A stretch of DNA of 64,000 bases from Candidatus Cloacimonadota bacterium (GTDB lineage Bacteria; Cloacimonadota; Cloacimonadia; G963667145), in the NCBI GenBank assembly GCA_963667255.1, contig OY762940.1, positions 73,421-137,420 of the forward strand, written 5' to 3'. Shown here in pieces: positions 5,105-55,431 of this stretch (positions are counted from its first letter, which is position 1; every line of letters begins with the position of its first letter). Under the pieces are notes generated by a model. That model was given only the letters and a program-made list of their open reading frames with translations, made no database searches and had not been told where the DNA came from. A program made the position numbers and the translations under genes.

Positions 5105-6175
5105 ATGAATTTTAACAGAAACAACAAGAAGGTATTAGTTACAGGAGCTGCCGGCTTTATAGGTCTGCACCTGTGCCTGCGACTTCTCGACAAAGGATAC
5201 GAAGTTATCGGACTGGACAATATTAACAGCTATTACGCCGTTGAGCTAAAACACGGCAGATTAGCTGAGCTGGGAATCGAAGTTGACAAAATTCAGTGGA
5301 ACACTCTCATCTGTAGCAACTCTTTCCCCAACTTCAAATTCATCCAAGCCAATCTGGAAGACAAGACAACCATCGATAATCTCTTCTCAACCCAAAATTT
5401 CGACAACGCTTGTCATTTGGCGGCACAAGCTGGAGTTCGTTACAGCCTGATAAACCCCGATGCTTATATCCAAAGCAATATTGTGGGATTCTTGAATATT
5501 CTGGAGGCTTGCCGTCACCACAAAGTGAAAGCACTTACTTATGCAAGTTCATCGAGTGTTTACGGGATGAACGGAAAACAGCCGTTTTCCACCTCCGATA
5601 ATGTTGACCATCCCGTTTCCCTCTACGCTGCCAGCAAAAAAGCCAACGAGCTGATGGCACACACCTACTCTCATCTCTACAATCTCCCGACTACAGGATT
5701 GCGATTTTTCACTGTTTACGGACCTTGGGGCAGACCGGATATGGCACCTTTTTTATTCACAAAAGCCATCATCGAAGACAAACCCATTGATGTTTACAAT
5801 AGCGGAGATATGCAACGAGATTTCACCTACATCGACGATATCATCGAGGGTGTAATGAAAGTTATCGAAAGCCAGCCGAACGGAGCAAACCCCCAAAATC
5901 TTAATACTTCATCTTCTCTTGCCCCTTACAAAATTTACAACATCGGCAACAGTTCTCCCGTAAATCTAATGGATTTTATTTCGGCTATAGAGAAGAAACT
6001 GGACAAAAAAGCACAAATGAATTTCCTCCCTATGCAACCTGGAGATGTCCCTTCCACTTGGGCGGACACAAAAGATTTGGAAAAAGATTTTGATTATAAA
6101 CCAAATACAGATATTCAAACAGGTATCAACCATTTTATTGATTGGTATAAAGAGTTTTACAATATTTACGCTTAA
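5105..6175 (+). CDS. NAD-dependent epimerase/dehydratase of the UDP-glucuronate 4-epimerase type
   Basis: 356 aa. N-terminal Rossmann GxxGxxG (VTGAAGFIG). Catalytic YxxxK (YAASKKANE). Extended SDR length. Confidence 0.8.
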   Translation: MNFNRNNKKVLVTGAAGFIGLHLCLRLLDKGYEVIGLDNINSYYAVELKHGRLAELGIEVDKIQWNTLICSNSFPNFKFIQANLEDKTTIDNLFSTQNFDNACHLAAQAGVRYSLINPDAYIQSNIVGFLNILEACRHHKVKALTYASSSSVYGMNGKQPFSTSDNVDHPVSLYAASKKANELMAHTYSHLYNLPTTGLRFFTVYGPWGRPDMAPFLFTKAIIEDKPIDVYNSGDMQRDFTYIDDIIEGVMKVIESQPNGANPQNLNTSSSLAPYKIYNIGNSSPVNLMDFISAIEKKLDKKAQMNFLPMQPGDVPSTWADTKDLEKDFDYKPNTDIQTGINHFIDWYKEFYNIYA

Positions 6176-49418: not shown

Positions 49419-49518
49419 TCCATTTAACCCTCCCTTTTATCGAATGTAACATGTCCAAACATTGTCAGTTATGTCAAAGCTATTTTTCCCCAAAAACATC
49501 CCAATCCGAAATTACAGG

Positions 49519-49536
49519 TCAATTATCAATTATAAC
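49519..49536. repeat. 18-mer GTCAATTATCAATTATAA (copy 1 of a motif repeated downstream of RNA genes)
   Basis: Identical 18-mer at 53705..53722. A related copy lies at 59646..59664. Confidence 0.7.
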
Positions 49537-49591
49537 CTATTGAATTATCAATTAACTAAGAGGTTTTTTATTGCAAATAAAAAAGCTCTTA

Positions 49592-49712
<121 letters not shown>

Positions 49713-49877
49713 AAGAGCTTTAAACAAATCGTTATGATAAAAAAGTTGGTGAGATATTAAAAAGAAAAAAATAAGCCAATGGAACAATTAGTATCACTCG
49801 GCTGAGAGCATTACTACTCTTACACCTGTGACCTATCAACGTTGTAGTCTCCAACGGTTCTCATAGGGAAATCTATT

Positions 49878-49919
<42 letters not shown>

Positions 49920-50036
49920 TTCCAAACTTAGCTACTCGGCAATGCAGCTGACGCCACAACCGATACACCAGAGGTTTGTTCACACCGGTCCTCTCGTACT
50001 AGATGCAAATCCTCTCAAATTTCCTACTCCCACGAA

Positions 50037-50083
<47 letters not shown>

Positions 50084-50106
50084 ACTCTTTAATTGGCGAA
50101 CAGCCA

Positions 50107-50137
<31 letters not shown>

Positions 50138-50193
50138 AGTTGAGCCGACATCGAGGTGCCAAACACCGCCGTCGATATGAACTCTTAGGCGGT

Positions 50194-50226
<33 letters not shown>

Positions 50227-50384
50227 TTTGAGCAACGGCCCTTCCATACAGAGCCGCCGGATCACTAAGACCTGCTTTCGCATCTGCTCGACCCGTCAGT
50301 CTCGCAGTTAAGCTCCCTTATACCTTTATGCTCTTCGATTGATTGCCGACCAATCTGAGGGAACCTTTGTAAGCCTCCGTTACT

Positions 50385-50417
<33 letters not shown>

Positions 50418-50668
50418 ACCAGACAATGTCTGCTAGTAGGGTAACTACTAGCGTTAGTGATTCAACAACATAAGGGTGGTATTTCAAGGTTGACTCCACG
50501 GCGACTAGCGTCACCGCTTCAAAATCTCCCACCTATCCTACACATACCTCATCAAATCACAATGTCAAGCTATAGTAAAGGTTCACGGGGTCTTTCCGTC
50601 CGTTCGCGGGTAGGCGGCATCTTCACCGCCACTACAATTTCACCGAGATCCTGGTTGAGACAGTATTC

Positions 50669-50765
<97 letters not shown>

Positions 50766-51461
50766 ACTCAAGAGCTTGCACTCTCTCACTTAACCTTCCG
50801 GCACCGGGCAGGTGTCAGTCTATATACTTTCTTTTGCAAGTTTGCATAGACCTGTGTTTTTGATAAACAGTCGCTTGAATCTTTTCACTGCGGCCGGGGG
50901 CATGCTCATACCGCGAAGGTAATCACTTCCCCCGGCACCCCTTCTCCCGAAGTTACGGGGTCAATATGCCGAGTTCCTTAACCAGAATTCTCTCGAACAC
51001 CTTAGGATACTCTCCTCACCCACCTGAGTCGGTTTGGGGTACGGTCTGTTATGACATAAACGCTTAGAAGTTATTTCTTGGCAGCACTATAGGTGGACTT
51101 TGCGAGCATAAGCTCTCGTCCTGTGTCTCAGAATATTGCTCGGCGGATTTGCCAACCGAACTTCTTACGCACATTCAACACCACTTTCAGCCGGTGTCTC
51201 CACTGCAACGCCGCGTCACTCCATCACTTCCCATAACAGGTTCTGGAATATTAACCAGATTCCCATCAGCTACCCTGGAAACCAGACTCGCCTTAGGGGC
51301 CGACTAACCCTGAGCAGATTTTCTTTACTCAGGAAACCTTGGGTTTTCGGTGTGCGGACTTCTCATCCGCATTATCGCTACTCATGCTAGCATTCTCTCT
51401 TGTAGCCACTCCAGCATCTCTTACAAGACACCTTCAACGCCGACTACAATGCTCTCCTACC

Positions 51462-51770
51462 CCAAGCACCTATTTTTAACTTCAAACTTTATCAGAATTT
51501 TCAACTCTCTTTAATAAATGTCTTTTAGAATTGCCATTCTGTTTCAGCATTCTTTCTCTTTTTCTCGCATCACTTTCCGATAAATAAGCTTCATAATATA
51601 CAAGCTTCCAATTACCAAAACTTGTATACTCACTCTTACCACTCAAATGCTCAGAAATCCGTCATTTTAAATCCTTGGTGTAACCAATATAATGTAAGTT
51701 TCTATTTATTTCAGTAAATAGACATCATACATAGCTACTCCTTAATTCAAAATTAAAAATAGGTGCTTGG
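51462..51770 (-). mobile_element. 23S rRNA intervening sequence (IVS) at the helix-45 region, bounded by 18-bp perfect inverted repeats
   Basis: CCAAGCACCTATTTTTAA at 51462-51479 and TTAAAAATAGGTGCTTGG at 51753-51770. It interrupts the otherwise conserved ...ACCGAAATCGCGG | GGTAGGAGAGCATTG... 23S sequence. Confidence 0.8.
51482..51732 (-). pseudogene. Degenerate GIY-YIG nuclease-family gene inside the IVS, with two frame disruptions
   Basis: AAGGAG RBS, then ATG: MYDVYLLK*. Frame shift: NRNLHYIGYTKDLK*. Frame shift: RISEHLSGKSEYTSFGNWKLVYYEAYLSESDARKRERMLKQNGNSKRHLLKRVENSDKV*. These pieces match the GIY...YIG...R...E...N layout of small GIY-YIG proteins. Confidence 0.7.
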
Positions 51771-52447
51771 CCGCGATTTCGGTATTATACTTATCAGTCC
51801 CGATCATCTTCGGTGCATTACCACTTAACCAGTGAGCTATTACGCACTCTTTAAATGATAGCTGCTTCTAAGCTAACATCCTGGCTGTCTTTGCAATAAA
51901 ACATCCTTTCTCACTAAGTATAAATTTAGGGACCTTAATCGTCGGTTAGGGATCTTTCCCTCTCGCCCATGGAGCTTATCCCCCACAGACTGTCTCCCTT
52001 ACATCAAATTACGGTATTCGGAGTTTATTAAGGTTCGGTAGGCTTGTAGGCCCCCTAGCCTAATTAGTGCTCTACCCCCGCAATTCTAATAAGAGGCACT
52101 GCCTAAACAGTTTTCGGAGAGAACCAGATATCGCCCGGTTTGATTGGCCTTTCACCCCTACCAACAGCTCATCCACTGATTTTTCAACATCAGTTGGTTC
52201 GGTCCTCCATTTGGTTTTACCCAAACTTCAACCTGGCCATAGGTAGATCACCGGGTTTCGGGTCTAATCCTGCCAACTAAACGCGCTATTAACACTCGCT
52301 TTCGCTTCGGCTCCATCACTTTATGATTTAACCTTGCTGACAAAATTAACTCGCTAGCTCATTATACAAAAGGCACGCCATCGCCCGACAAGCAGGCTCT
52401 GACTGATTATAAACATACGGTTTCAGATACTATTTCACTCCCCTTCC

Positions 52448-52495
<48 letters not shown>

Positions 52496-52680
52496 AAAAT
52501 GTATTTAGCCTTACCGGATGGTCCCGGCAGATTCAGACAGGGTTTCACGTGCCCCGCCCTACTTGGGATACTGCTACAGCAGATACAGAATTTCGTCTAC
52601 AGGAGTTTCACCTTCTTCGCTCCAGCTTTCCAGCTAAGTTCGACTATCCTCTATCAGTCCGATATCGCAGTCCCGCAACC

Positions 52681-52759
52681 CCAAGCACCTATTTTTAACT
52701 CGTTTCTATTCTCTAATTCTGTTTGCAATTCCTTCTCAGAATTAAAAATAGGTGCTTGG
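52681..52759 (-). mobile_element. Second, miniature 23S IVS (79 bp) with the same 18-bp terminal inverted repeats, in a domain-I variable region (near E. coli position ~280)
   Basis: CCAAGCACCTATTTTTAA...TTAAAAATAGGTGCTTGG flanking a 43-bp core. Inserted after conserved GGCGAGCGAACGGGAAAGAGCC. Confidence 0.75.
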
Positions 52760-53167
52760 TTTAGGCTCTTTCCCGTTCGCTCGCCACTACTTAGGAAATC
52801 ATTATTTATTTTCTTTTCCTGCGGTTACCTTAGATGTTTCAATTCACCGCGTATGCCTCAAGTAAAGTACTTGATAGTCAGGTATAACCCTGACTGGGTT
52901 GCCCCATTCGGAAATTCCCGGGTCAAAGCTTGCTTACAGCTATCCGAGACTTATCGCAGCAAACCACGTCCTTCTTCGCCATTTTTGCGCCAAGGCATTC
53001 ACCGTATGCCCTTTCTACTTAATTTTTCGATTCTCTTTAATAATCTCACCACTTCTATAAAACTTCTTCTTAAAAGAACTATAAAATAAATTACTAGCCC
53101 AAAAATTGAGCCATTAATTTATTCTTTATACTCATCAATCAAATCGCTCATCCATCACAAAAAAAAA

Positions 53168-53243
<76 letters not shown>

Positions 53244-53322
53244 GAGGCAAATTGCAGGCAATTTGCAATTAATAAGTTATAATTAAAAATTGATAATTAC
53301 CACTCCTAACCACCAAAAACAT

Positions 53323-53670
53323 CTAATTACTCTTAGATTTTTTAACTATTGTGGTCAGAAGTTTAATTATCTCTATCAAATCACATTTGAGGCTATCAAT
53401 TTCATCCTCTGTCAAATAAGCATCTGCCAACAAATCCAGCCAGTATTCTGTTTCTCCAGCCTCTTTGAGAGCTATTGACAGTTTTGATATGAAATCTTTT
53501 TTGCTTTGAGCGTTCTGACTTTCTCTGATATTAGCACCTATCGAAGTACCGCTTCTTAAAATCTGTTTCGAAAGCACATACTCATTTTTGACAGCTGTCA
53601 GATGCCGATAAAACCTAACAATTCGCTTTGCAAACTGAAAAGCCTTGTCATAAACAATATTATCTTTCAT
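53323..53670 (-). CDS. Four-helix-bundle protein of the '23S rRNA-intervening-sequence protein' family, encoded in the 16S-23S spacer
   Basis: 115 aa. Family motifs LSKQILRSGTSIGANIRES (family consensus SIxxNIAEG) and LKEAGETEYWLDLL (AxGSxxExxxxL). Sits between tRNA-Ile and tRNA-Ala. Confidence 0.7.
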   Translation of the reverse strand: MKDNIVYDKAFQFAKRIVRFYRHLTAVKNEYVLSKQILRSGTSIGANIRESQNAQSKKDFISKLSIALKEAGETEYWLDLLADAYLTEDEIDSLKCDLIEIIKLLTTIVKKSKSN

Positions 53671-53687: not shown

Positions 53688-53716
53688 ATTATCATTTATC
53701 CATTGTCAATTATCAA
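53688..53716 (-). promoter_or_regulatory. Candidate sigma70-type promoter for the spacer ORF (TTGATA-17 nt-GATAAT on the minus strand)
   Basis: Minus strand: TTGATAATTGACAATGGATAAATGATAAT, about 18 nt upstream of ATG 53670. It overlaps the repeated 18-mer. Confidence 0.3.
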
Positions 53717-53723
53717 TTATAAA

Positions 53724-53800
<77 letters not shown>

Positions 53801-53856: not shown

Positions 53857-55431
<1,575 letters not shown>

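Follow-up and report, generated by a model that had tools for sequence, protein, structure and literature searches.

MITEs pair with an autonomous partner, the Correia elements of Neisseria being an example that is processed by RNase III. Known IVSs of 23S rRNA lie at helices H25 and H45 in Salmonella, Yersinia and Campylobacter and at H9 in alphaproteobacteria, with ORF-bearing forms in Leptospira and Coxiella; H9, H25 and H45 are the sites listed as classical (PMC4990558). In other bacteria, RNase III removes IVSs by cutting within the stem that their repeats form and, as stated in the Coxiella paper, IVS mobility and the function of the IVS ORFs have been unresolved since 1990-93 (PMC4990558). 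GIY-YIG ORFs have been described in non-intron rRNA insertions of CPR bacteria (Tsurumaki et al. 2024, PMC11270868, citing Brown et al. 2015), the conclusion being that these ORFs probably do not spread by homing (PMC11270868).

The 64-kb stretch of DNA analysed here (the window) carries two inserts, of 79 and 309 bp, in a single 23S rRNA gene. As in 23S IVSs, a stem-loop extension stands in for the tip of a surface helix, the inverted-repeat stem measures 20-28 bp, occurrence among relatives is sporadic and some copies carry a sense-strand ORF prone to decay; in IVSs, too, mobility was long suspected but never shown (PMC4990558). The present inserts differ from those IVSs in using a non-classical site (helix 15 / ES5L), in encoding a GIY-YIG nuclease in place of the four-helix-bundle IVP/S23p protein, in carrying one terminal repeat that recurs at five 23S helices as well as in RNase P RNA, 16S leaders and 6S-like RNAs across phyla, and in combining full-length and miniature (mini) copies within one gene. 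The likeness to the CPR insertions (PMC11270868) lies in small GIY-YIG ORFs within sequences that are neither group I nor group II introns, at several less-conserved rRNA sites; the 309-bp insert is itself a non-intron rRNA insertion with such an ORF, its host, to judge from the closest genome (L001), being a member of the Cloacimonadota and not of the CPR. In contrast to the CPR case, however, ORF-bearing hosts are here found in Cloacimonadota, Acidobacteriota and others, and ORF-less copies occur in RNase P RNA of Spirochaetota. The main text of PMC11270868, moreover, mentions neither inverted repeats (0 occurrences) nor miniature derivatives nor copies outside rRNA.

A small and a large insert with the same ends

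The rRNA operon of the window is on the minus strand (16S, 53866-55431; 5S, 49593-49709) and its 23S gene measures 3258 nt, against 2925 positions in the model. The features of the gene and of the small insert are as follows:

49767..53024, minus strand: 23S rRNA gene containing the two inserts (full-length match to Rfam RF02541, 2721 bits)
52681..52759, minus strand: 79-bp miniature element, without ORF, in the tip of the helix-15 / ES5L hairpin
52739..52759, minus strand: 5′ arm of the mini in RNA sense, CCAAGCACCTATTTTTAATTC (21-bp perfect stem)
52681..52701, minus strand: 3′ arm of the mini in RNA sense, GAGTTAAAAATAGGTGCTTGG (21-bp perfect stem)
52716..52737, minus strand: segment of the mini core resembling nt 194-217 of the large-element ORF, GAGAAGGAATTGCAAACAGAAT (local alignment)

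With stop codons in every frame, the 79-bp mini has no coding capacity. When folded, its complementary termini pair perfectly over 21 bp (MFE -31 kcal/mol, z = -5.1), a long duplex of the size expected for an RNase III-type substrate (~20 bp or more). Comparison of the filled window site with the empty site of L001, a Cloacimonadota genome whose 23S is 96.5% identical to that of the window, shows that the mini is a stem-loop extension replacing a native helix tip, as in IVSs. The native hairpin lies between helices 14 and 16 (helix 15 / ES5L, ~E. coli nt 270); in the bacterial consensus it is a 7-bp hairpin at positions 274-296 of the Rfam LSU model, between the H13/H14 and H16/H18 arms. The site was placed by the Rfam consensus structure via L030, a distant lineage with a mini at the identical position of its 23S, and L001 served as the empty-site reference. 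E. coli 23S is devoid of a helix at this place, nt 266-275 being labelled 'H14,H16', ES5(L) (PMC2441807, Table 2). The first-pass annotation had put the insert at roughly E. coli position 280, which should read nearer nt 270, but it had rightly placed it outside the classical H9, H25 and H45 sites, between H14 and H16 (PMC4990558, PMC2441807); helix 15 / ES5L is absent from the list of classical sites in PMC4990558. The classical location being a matter of custom and not of strict definition, the mini is an IVS at a new site. All five 23S sites used by the element tolerate insertions in E. coli (PMC2441807, Table 2).

The claim that this insert has the same 18-bp inverted repeats as the 309-bp IVS proved exact. 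The 18-mer CCAAGCACCTATTTTTAA ends both inserts (52681-52698 and 52742-52759 in the small one, 51462-51479 and 51753-51770 in the large one), so that on both arms the mini agrees at 18 of 18 positions with the ends of a longer, coding element from the same genome. The same annotation had allowed that the 18-mer might simply be common in this genome outside inverted repeats. It occurs exactly four times in the window, each time as an insert end, with no further match at up to three mismatches; chance expectation in the window is 0.10, and none of 100 shuffles reached four copies. A search of 596 Gb of reference genomes found the 18-mer paired at a single locus, the helix-45 element of the related Cloacimonadota genome L001. 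On the 5′ side (RNA sense) identity between the inserts continues past the 18-mer, covering 24 nt with one mismatch, and the common sequence runs only ~6 nt beyond the repeat; on the 3′ side, 23 nt are 100% identical, the last 3 nt being flanking rRNA.

MAFFT aligned the remaining core of the mini to the 3′ part of the large-element ORF. Within the large insert, the 43-nt core aligns best with ORF nt 194-217, agreeing in 20 of 24 columns, a score equalled in 12 of 1000 shuffles; the resemblance is only marginally significant (p about 0.01; 0.012). A likeness of the core to the sub-terminal region of the large IVS had been proposed: there is a modest match, but it falls mainly in the ORF segment and not next to the termini.

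The large insert and its nuclease gene

The 309-bp insert occupies helix 45 and consists almost wholly of ORF and repeats; an Rfam scan of the window found no intron families. Its features are:

51462..51770, minus strand: 309-bp element with an ORF, inserted in helix 45 and ending in the same repeats
51744..51770, minus strand: 5′ arm of the large element, stem extending to ~27 bp (fold)
51462..51489, minus strand: 3′ arm of the large element, overlapping the ORF at its last codons and stop (fold)
51738..51743, minus strand: Shine-Dalgarno-like AAGGAG, 5 nt upstream of the ATG (sequence)
51482..51732, minus strand: decayed GIY-YIG ORF (three-frame translation; alignment to the L001 ORF)

The insert folds into a ~27-bp stem (z = -7.5), and the arrangement of AAGGAG and ATG is also seen in L001, L016 and L018. 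Three lesions interrupt the window ORF: a Y3D change, a 4-nt deletion that shifts the frame at codons 9-10 (~51702-51714) and a TGA in place of Arg25 (51662-51664). Once repaired, the reading scores with Pfam PF01541 (E 8.8e-15) and is identical to a database protein, P0002. A sense reading of TGA was rejected, as the L001 ORF, P0002 and seven of seven context-checked homologs use standard stops, and the window ORF also carries the 4-nt deletion. To judge from these lesions, the large window copy is a pseudogene. The intact copy encoding P0002 apparently lies on the same 1.59-Mb contig, and the two together appear to form a gain-and-decay pattern. Between the window and L001 ORFs, pN/pS is 0.12 at pS = 0.62, and both 18-nt repeats are unaltered across this divergence, a sequence comparison indicating that the ORF has been under purifying selection while the repeats stayed frozen.

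Within the ORF family, the catalytic residues Y2, Y3, Y5, Y16-I-G, R26, H30 and E49 are invariant. The protein matches 1zg2 by sequence (E 3.2e-6), and its predicted structure is a single domain of 84 aa (pLDDT 88.8) for which Foldseek returned 1zg2 (TM 0.57, 37% identity), Slx1 (TM 0.62-0.64) and I-TevI (0.44-0.48); the TIGR01453 score is 20.6 bits against a cutoff of 56. These data predict an Slx1/UPF0213-like GIY-YIG nuclease, closer to these folds than to I-TevI.

The catalytic domain, the home in an rRNA gene and the apparent coexistence of an intact and a decayed copy are reminiscent of GIY-YIG homing endonuclease genes, such as those of I-TevI and of group I intron endonucleases, with their cycle of gain, decay and loss and, by analogy, the insert may likewise be kept silent through removal from the RNA. 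I-TevI, however, is 245 aa long, with a separate DNA-binding domain and one long cognate target, whereas here there is no intron and no DNA-binding domain, and at least five 23S sites plus other genes are used. An 84-aa catalytic domain lacking a DNA-binding domain is not an obvious site-specific enzyme. Also unlike homing genes, the element has conserved ends, a transposon-like trait.

ORF homologs lie inside 23S in 9 of 11 sampled lineages, always on the sense strand, at H9, H25, H45 and H63. The other two (P0032 and P0067) are free-standing genes, one of them still bounded by repeats. Full-length copies span ~300-345 bp and are built of a left repeat, a Shine-Dalgarno sequence, a GIY-YIG ORF of 81-88 aa and a right repeat. 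ORF-bearing copies with the same repeat core are found at other helices and in other phyla: the core AGCACCTATTT is common to Cloacimonadota (H45), Thermotomaculum (H25) and one further lineage (H45), whose proteins are 57-58% identical.

Filled and empty sites in 23S and other stable RNAs

Comparison of the window with L001 (64 kb of the former genome and 8 kb of the latter were inspected) gave the following occupancy, listed with the unoccupied sites of the window:

Helix 9: window empty, L001 filled
Helix 15: window filled, L001 empty
Helix 25: window empty, L001 filled
Helix 45: window filled, L001 filled (L001 ORF intact)
52858..52874, minus strand: unoccupied helix-9 hairpin, TCAAGTACTTTACTTGA; L001 has a 70-bp mini
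52383..52397, minus strand: unoccupied helix-25 hairpin, GCCTGCTTGTCGGGC; L001 has a 70-bp mini
50892..50941, minus strand: unoccupied helix-63 region (flank mapping, window 23S positions 2094/2127 and 2091/2151)

The helix-63 site is filled in other lineages, by an ORF-bearing copy in L080 and by a mini in L065. The helix-15 mini is sporadic among close relatives, being missing from L001. An unrelated sequence of similar length in a relative at this position had been named as the sign of a normal variable loop; L001 has a 20-nt native hairpin, CCAGCTGACTTGTTAGCTGG. The H9 and H25 minis of L001 carry the same termini as the window elements. The H9 mini shares an exact 14/14 match with the ORF, a score reached by none of 1000 shuffles; the H25 mini gave no significant match to it. 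Some minis thus appear to contain ORF fragments, which argues for their descent from ORF-bearing copies. At H9, H15 and H25, alignment of the empty with the filled site revealed no target-site duplication, the native hairpin being replaced.

These data bear on the proposal that the small insert is a MITE-like deletion derivative. As in MITEs, the mini is short and non-coding and ends like a longer coding element; it may also be one of several dispersed copies and derive its core partly from the partner. Termini, size and lack of an ORF speak for the proposal. The parallel ends at the target-site duplication, which is missing, and at the transposase. Whereas MITEs land at a short target motif, the element replaces hairpin tips in structured-RNA genes, and its partner encodes no known transposase but a minimal GIY-YIG nuclease of the UPF0213/Slx1 type. 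We know of no transposase of that class.

Besides the one mini in the 64-kb window and the two in L001, a metagenome scan gave 61 short copies, in RNase P RNA (three of them in one Treponema gene), 23S (also at the H15 site), 16S leaders and 6S-like rod RNAs. The third of the Treponema modules lies after P18, in a variable stretch at model positions 315-335 in the Rfam alignment, which ruled out helix P18 itself as its site. Since the search pattern fixed 11 nt per arm, those bases are conserved among the matches by construction; the YCC/GGR flanks, which lie outside the pattern, are kept in 44-51 of 58 short copies. In 49 of 60 copies the host sequence goes on pairing beyond the module, as compared to 6% of control positions. 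From the information content of the pattern, possibly up to about ten of 57 contigs are chance or unrelated hairpins. The host gene was identified for about half of the metagenome copies, leaving roughly 30 contexts without one. Altogether, the same palindromic element caps hairpins in stable RNA genes, those for rRNA and RNase P RNA among them, and does so in three or more bacterial phyla.

Two hosts, in L024 and L046, were considered as tmRNA because of a smpB-like spacing. This assignment was dropped, as ARAGORN found no tmRNA and Rfam returned nothing at E <= 0.01; by inference, both look like 6S-type rods. Several 6S-like host RNAs are missed by Rfam. Phage was rejected as a vehicle, as a search of 2.9 million viral contigs for paired repeats at mini or ORF length found none. 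Literature searches returned no account of the module from genes for RNase P RNA or 6S RNA, nor anything on UPF0213/YhbQ or on GIY-YIG proteins with terminal repeats.

Origin and RNA fate of the inserts

We consider it rather probable that the 79-bp segment derives by internal deletion from a compact palindromic element, of which it is a non-autonomous copy, and that this element spreads by nuclease-driven hairpin copying and is excised or tolerated at the RNA level. According to this scheme, the element would take over the tip of a short, surface-exposed hairpin, here helix 15 (ES5L). The Slx1/UPF0213-like nuclease, translated from the rRNA precursor or from excised RNA, would cut hairpin- or cruciform-forming DNA at such sites, and the broken hairpin would then receive a copy of a resident palindromic element through repair or template switching. 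This copying may be aided where the outer repeat (CCAGC/GCTGG-like) briefly matches the native stem. Minis that lack the ORF would persist and perhaps spread in trans. The 21-bp duplex of the repeats would, as in the IVSs that have been characterised, be an RNase III substrate; with the insert cut out or tolerated, the ribosome should still function. A comparable union of a DNA-level mobility function with an RNA-level removal device, making insertions harmless, is found in IStrons (PMC4227781). There, however, removal is by a self-splicing ribozyme, whereas here it would fall to the host RNase III acting on the repeat duplex, and the mobility proteins are unrelated (PMC4227781).

Could the conserved stem instead be an RNA module of benefit to the host, be it a processing signal or a protein-binding hairpin co-regulating stable RNAs, with the GIY-YIG ORF as an occasional passenger? 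The sequence of the stem is kept far beyond the needs of pairing, in contrast to hypervariable loops, the only places where the module sits are the helix tips of abundant structured RNAs, an RNase P gene retains a 28-nt copy that is nearly all stem, and changes in the repeat are compensated on the opposite arm (e.g., at H25 of L001, CACATATTT / AAATATGTG). Still, we find this account unlikely. Two genomes with 96.5% identical 23S differ in the occupancy of three of the four sites, a turnover typical of selfish DNA and not of a required module; furthermore, the module is missing from most bacteria, repeat subtypes follow ORF subtypes, apparent ORF fragments occur inside minis and one free-standing ORF copy between protein-coding genes keeps the repeat. 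Such a copy, bounded by repeats, is also at odds with movement at the RNA level, in which an excised hairpin would be ligated or reverse-spliced into the loops of abundant RNAs, then reverse transcribed and recombined into the genome. That all hosts are abundant stable RNAs, that insertion points coincide with RNA hairpin loops and that replacement is exact and leaves no target-site duplication would suit this route. Nevertheless, its probability seems very low: the superfamily of the enzyme is one of DNA nucleases, the element is accompanied by neither a reverse transcriptase nor a ribozyme, and Rfam scans of the window and of the other loci returned no intron family.

The remaining accounts deny mobility altogether. 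One holds that the inserts are immobile expansion segments of independent origin, between which the stem was copied by intragenic gene conversion or concerted evolution; it draws on the fact that identity is mainly in the stems, with little convincing likeness in the mini core, and on the native GGGGT found just 3′ of the stem at both sites. The multi-site, multi-phylum distribution already largely refutes this reading, which we regard as highly improbable: the same termini appear at two more helices in L001, whose helix 15 is empty, the core repeat recurs in other phyla and in non-rRNA genes, and the distant L030 has a mini at the exact same helix-15 site. The other takes the insert for an ordinary, lineage-specific variable loop or expansion segment whose likeness to the helix-45 element is coincidental. 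Although ES5L is known to vary and to accept insertions (PMC2441807, Table 2), this is hardly credible and is already refuted by the four exact 18-mers (against 0.1 expected), by the empty helix-15 site of the close relative L001 and by the spread of the family over sites, genes and phyla.

These findings support the element family, with a full-length and an internally deleted member, that the first-pass annotation had set against a lineage-specific expansion segment, and extend it to further sites and phyla; transposition or homing, as it had put it, may be suggested by sequence patterns. More tentatively, at slightly less than an even chance, the nuclease-bearing palindromic element may represent an unrecognised class of mobile element: a palindromic cassette with a ~15-nt terminal repeat (YCCAGCACCTATTTT) and a minimal Slx1-like GIY-YIG nuclease, which would copy itself into hairpin tips of stable RNAs (23S, 16S leader, RNase P RNA, 6S-like) across phyla, be rendered harmless by processing or tolerance of its repeat duplex, and decay to minis (55-80 nt) and micros (28 nt), the window insert being a mini. 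The pair of repeat and nuclease could be a new structure-guided DNA-cutting system.

With a defined terminal repeat, a small nuclease under selection, full-length and mini copies in one gene and near-identical genomes that differ in their filled sites, the locus offers a testable system for IVS mobility. If both inserts are excised from pre-23S and, as is usual for IVSs, the ends are not religated, the 23S would be fragmented into a predicted three pieces, of 265, 910 and 1695 nt, and not the four fragments that had been anticipated. Since RNase P RNA is among the stable RNAs whose helices the module caps, cleavage at these positions would mean that some bacteria make do with an RNase P RNA in pieces. 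Inserts of this kind disturb rRNA-based annotation, primers and ncRNA models.

Two inserts with common termini in one 23S gene

The features of the rRNA operon that carries the 79-bp insert are listed below; tRNA-Ile and tRNA-Ala lie in its 16S-23S spacer.

49593-49709, minus strand: 5S rRNA gene
49767-53024, minus strand: 23S rRNA gene, 3258 nt against a 2925-position model
51462-51770, minus strand: 309-bp insert in the 23S gene
51482-51732, minus strand: decayed GIY-YIG ORF, three lesions
52681-52759, minus strand: 79-bp insert in the 23S gene
53866-55431, minus strand: 16S rRNA gene

Even with up to three mismatches allowed, a search of the 64-kb window for the 18-mer CCAAGCACCTATTTTTAA gives exactly four occurrences, against a chance expectation of 0.10, and every one is an exact copy at an insert end. 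The likeness extends past the 18-mer: at the 5′ RNA end the two inserts match over 24 nt with one mismatch, and at the 3′ RNA end they are exact over 23 nt, the final 3 nt of which belong to the rRNA. The predicted fold of the 79-bp insert is a stem of 21 uninterrupted base pairs (z = -5.1); that of the 309-bp insert has a stem measuring about 27 bp (z = -7.5). The four copies and the stems confirm the first-pass annotation in that both inserts are bounded by identical 18-bp inverted repeats; its concern that the 18-mer might simply be common outside inverted repeats is not borne out in the window.

A scan of 185,579 reference genomes for the 18-mer returned 13 matches. Twelve were single, about 17 such matches being expected by chance from the size of the collection, as we estimate; the one paired match was in L001, the chromosome of a related Cloacimonadota MAG whose 23S is 96.5% identical to that of the window, indels excluded. 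At the site of the 79-bp insert, all that is present in L001 is a native hairpin of 20 nt (CCAGCTGACTTGTTAGCTGG), not the unrelated sequence of similar length that would have pointed to a normal variable loop. Conversely, L001 carries 70-bp miniature copies (minis) with near-identical termini at helix 9 (CCAAGCACCTATTTAA...TTAAATAGGTGCTTGG) and helix 25 (CCAAGCACATATTTAA...TTAAATATGTGCTTGG), where the window has short native hairpins; a C-to-A change in the repeat of the helix-25 mini is compensated on the opposite arm. Occupancy is thus unlike at three of four sites. Comparison of filled and empty sites in the window and L001 reveals that the native hairpin is replaced, with no target-site duplication. 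The cassette is repeat-bounded, with rapid presence/absence turnover, and the 79-bp insert is likely an ORF-less member of a spreading family of this kind.

In L030, a locus from a distant lineage, a short ORF-less repeat-stem copy (module) occupies exactly the same place in 23S. In the Rfam alignment it has supplanted a native hairpin of 7 bp (LSU model positions 274-296) between the H13/H14 and H16/H18 arms; we take this hairpin to be helix 15 of the standard numbering. E. coli has no helix there: nt 266-275, labelled ‘H14,H16’, correspond to expansion segment ES5(L) and tolerate insertions (Yokoyama & Suzuki, PMC2441807, Table 2). By the same table, each of the five 23S sites of the family corresponds in E. 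coli to an expansion-segment site that tolerates insertions. The position first proposed, near E. coli nt 280, is therefore corrected to about nt 270; the placement outside the classical intervening sequence (IVS) sites stands, as these are given as helices 9, 25 and 45 (PMC4990558).

The 79-bp insert had also been read as an internally deleted derivative of the large one. Beyond the termini, its core best matches ORF nt 194-217 (20 of 24 aligned columns), a score equalled in 12 of 1000 shuffles. The helix-9 mini of L001 contains a perfect 14-mer from ORF nt 48-62 (0 of 1000 shuffles), and the helix-25 mini has no significant match to the ORF. At the sequence level, these results support descent of the minis from ORF-bearing copies by internal deletion, only moderately so for the window's own copy. 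The size series of ORF-bearing, mini and micro elements is extended by a 28-nt copy, nearly all stem (CCAGCACCTATT-ATTA-AATAGGTGCTGG), in a Treponema RNase P RNA gene (L022 4279-4306); a 65-nt copy follows about 35 nt downstream of it.

The nuclease ORF and its distribution

Frame translation of the 309-bp insert identified a small GIY-YIG protein whose reading is broken by a frameshift near the start and by a TGA in frame; the repaired reading matches Pfam PF01541 (E 8.8e-15). The helix-45 element of L001 has the ORF intact (84 aa), and by comparison the window ORF carries Y3D, a 4-nt deletion at codons 9-10 and a change of Arg25 to TGA. It is a very recent pseudogene. Between the two ORFs pN/pS is 0.12 at pS = 0.62, and both 18-nt repeats are unchanged across the same divergence; the catalytic GIY-YIG residues are invariant across the family. 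The ORF is under purifying selection, with occasional decay. Database protein P0002 is exactly the repaired reading, and P0006 is a 54-aa fragment such as a gene caller would derive from the broken copy. As the longest carrier contig is for each of them one of 1,587,896 bp, it is probable that the source genome contains a second rRNA operon, in which the ORF is intact. The nearest solved relative by sequence is UPF0213 protein BH0048; the AlphaFold model (pLDDT 88.8) gives TM scores of 0.57 with UPF0213, 0.62-0.64 with Slx1, 0.44-0.48 with I-TevI and 0.50 with UvrC.

Of the roughly 1000 database homologs of the L001 protein, nine could be placed in genomic context, and seven of these lie inside 23S genes, on the sense strand every time.

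Homologs located inside 23S genes, by site
Helix 9: L014/15 and L077/78 (two genomes)
Helix 25: L016/17 (Thermotomaculum hydrothermale) and L081/82 (one other)
Helix 45: L018/19 and L079 (metagenomes)
Helix 63 region: L080 (metagenome)

With the window and L001 included, the ORF lies in 23S in 9 of 11 sampled lineages and is a free-standing gene in two. All family elements measure 304-347 nt and are organised alike: between two repeats lies a Shine-Dalgarno sequence followed by an ORF starting MYYVY. Cloacimonadota (helix 45), Thermotomaculum (helix 25) and the L018 lineage (helix 45), whose proteins are only 57-58% identical, have the repeat core AGCACCTATTT in common, and graded variants (GAGCACCTCACTAAAC, CAGCACTTACTTTG, GGGCACTAAATC, GCCCTCACTT) are present in other lineages. 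The repeat is conserved across phyla far past the needs of pairing.

One free-standing homolog (L083 146-516; also L084, L085) lies amid protein-coding genes, bracketed by a related repeat (AGGCCGCACCTTT / AAAGGTGCGGCCT) whose right arm overlaps the final codons; the cassette is therefore not strictly confined to stable-RNA genes. Another (L086 3501-3761) has no repeat.

Modules in other stable-RNA genes

When metagenomes were scanned for the 11-nt core in paired form, its arms separated by 30-60 nt, 61 copies came to light on 57 contigs. Just outside the query, 2-3 bases keep to the pattern YCC/GGR in 44-51 of 58 copies, and the resulting 15-nt consensus, YCCAGCACCTATTTT, is the repeat of the Thermotomaculum ORF-bearing element. 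These flanks, the hypervariable loops, the location of nearly all copies in non-coding gaps and the outward pairing of host sequence from the module (49 of 60 copies, versus 6% of control positions) indicate that most copies are genuine family members; by our estimate, as many as about ten may be unrelated hairpins or chance matches. ORF-less derivatives sit at helix tips of several stable RNAs. About 30 contexts fall outside the identified host classes, and no copies were found in viral contigs.

Hosts of module copies
Class A RNase P RNA genes: nine copies on seven contigs
L039, 1580-2115, minus strand: RNase P RNA gene, 536 nt against a 367-position model, with modules at 1607-1671, 1852-1915 and 2035-2101
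23S, L030: helix-15 copy, plus a variant copy at helix 25
23S, L065: helix-63 site
16S leaders: L036, L069
Rod-like hairpins: L024 6485-6549, L029, L033, L048, L051, L055, L063, L064, L067, L076

The single RNase P RNA gene of L039, assigned by RpoD to a termite-gut Treponema/Leadbettera, has its three modules at model positions 20-43, 126-150 and 315-335, the first two presumably P3 and P12; two of the three have similar loops. If cleaved like IVSs, they would leave the ribozyme RNA in four pieces. At 607 and 669 nt, the RNase P genes of L022 and L023 are long enough that additional divergent inserts are probable.

In about a dozen cases the module forms the tip of a long, rod-like hairpin whose arms measure about 90 nt and whose flanks, folded without the module, give z = -6 to -14. 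Such hosts look like 6S RNAs. Rfam gave no match to them even at E <= 0.01, and they may be 6S variants hidden from current models by the insert, or another RNA class. The rod RNA of L028 holds, at about 5540-5600, a further hairpin whose repeat is a variant form (CCCAGCACCTGGAC...GTCCAGGTACTGG); together with the helix-25 variant of L030 (CCAGCACCTAATATTTT...), this indicates that repeat subtypes coexist in one RNA. Clusters of copies with conserved flanks include L032, L038 and L066, as well as L031, L035, L047 and L054, whose 78-nt copies have an extra internal half-site, CAGGTAGGTGCTGG. L045 has two copies 1.5 kb apart (827-881, 2357-2411) with identical flanks.

Proposed mode of spread and the spacer ORF

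At the RNA level, RNase III would be expected to cut the repeat duplex, by analogy with IVSs of other bacteria for which such cleavage is established (PMC4990558). Excision of both inserts would produce three 23S pieces (265, 910 and 1695 nt), one fewer than first predicted. The ORF is probably expressed from the rRNA transcript; that it always lies in the sense orientation and has a Shine-Dalgarno sequence of its own fits this. The nuclease is Slx1-like and lacks a DNA-binding domain; it would act on hairpin or cruciform DNA instead of a long sequence, after which break repair or template switching between palindromes would place copies of the element in new hairpins. Copying may be assisted where the outer repeat matches a native stem over a short stretch, as with CCAGC...GCTGG at the empty helix-15 site and CAAG...CTTG at the empty helix-9 site. 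We lean towards this mechanism in full. Its main rival holds that the stem is an RNA module of benefit to the host; against this speak the differing occupancy between close relatives, the presence of ORF fragments in minis and the way in which repeat subtypes vary together with ORF subtypes. The mobile-family interpretation of the first-pass annotation gains support, and is considerably extended, from occupancy turnover, the cross-phylum family and the copies beyond rRNA.

IVSs with terminal repeats and ORFs are already known, their mobility having been proposed in 1990-93 and still being called unresolved (PMC4990558), as are GIY-YIG ORFs in non-intron rRNA insertions of CPR bacteria, for which Tsurumaki et al. 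concluded that spread by homing is improbable (PMC11270868). Our literature search returned no account of a terminal repeat common to several helices and phyla, of miniature derivatives, of a helix-15 IVS or of copies in RNase P or 6S-like RNA genes. Unlike a MITE, the element is without target-site duplication, and we know of no transposase of this nuclease's class, so that, as far as can be judged, it departs from MITEs on two counts; from homing endonucleases it departs on three, having neither an intron nor a DNA-binding domain and not being tied to a single target site. It behaves in part like each without belonging to either. We class the 79-bp insert as an IVS at a new site, within a new and wider element family.

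The 16S-23S spacer of the window holds, in the tRNA-Ile/tRNA-Ala interval and sense to the rRNA transcript, a 115-aa ORF (53323-53670, minus strand) of the other classic IVS protein family (23S_rRNA_IVP, Pfam PF05635, E 9.4e-30), so that both IVS-associated ORF families are present in one operon. The same ORF is intact in the L001 spacer. A 17-nt inverted repeat (53282-53298 / 53708-53724) flanks the ORF in the window. An exact 18-nt direct repeat, GTCAATTATCAATTATAA, lies just past 5S (49518-49535) and just past tRNA-Ile (53705-53722), the latter copy forming a stem around the spacer ORF. The copy after 5S (49519-49541) is complementary to 53271-53293, upstream of tRNA-Ala (23 nt, 87%), a pairing that is probably a long-range processing stem enclosing tRNA-Ala, 23S and 5S.
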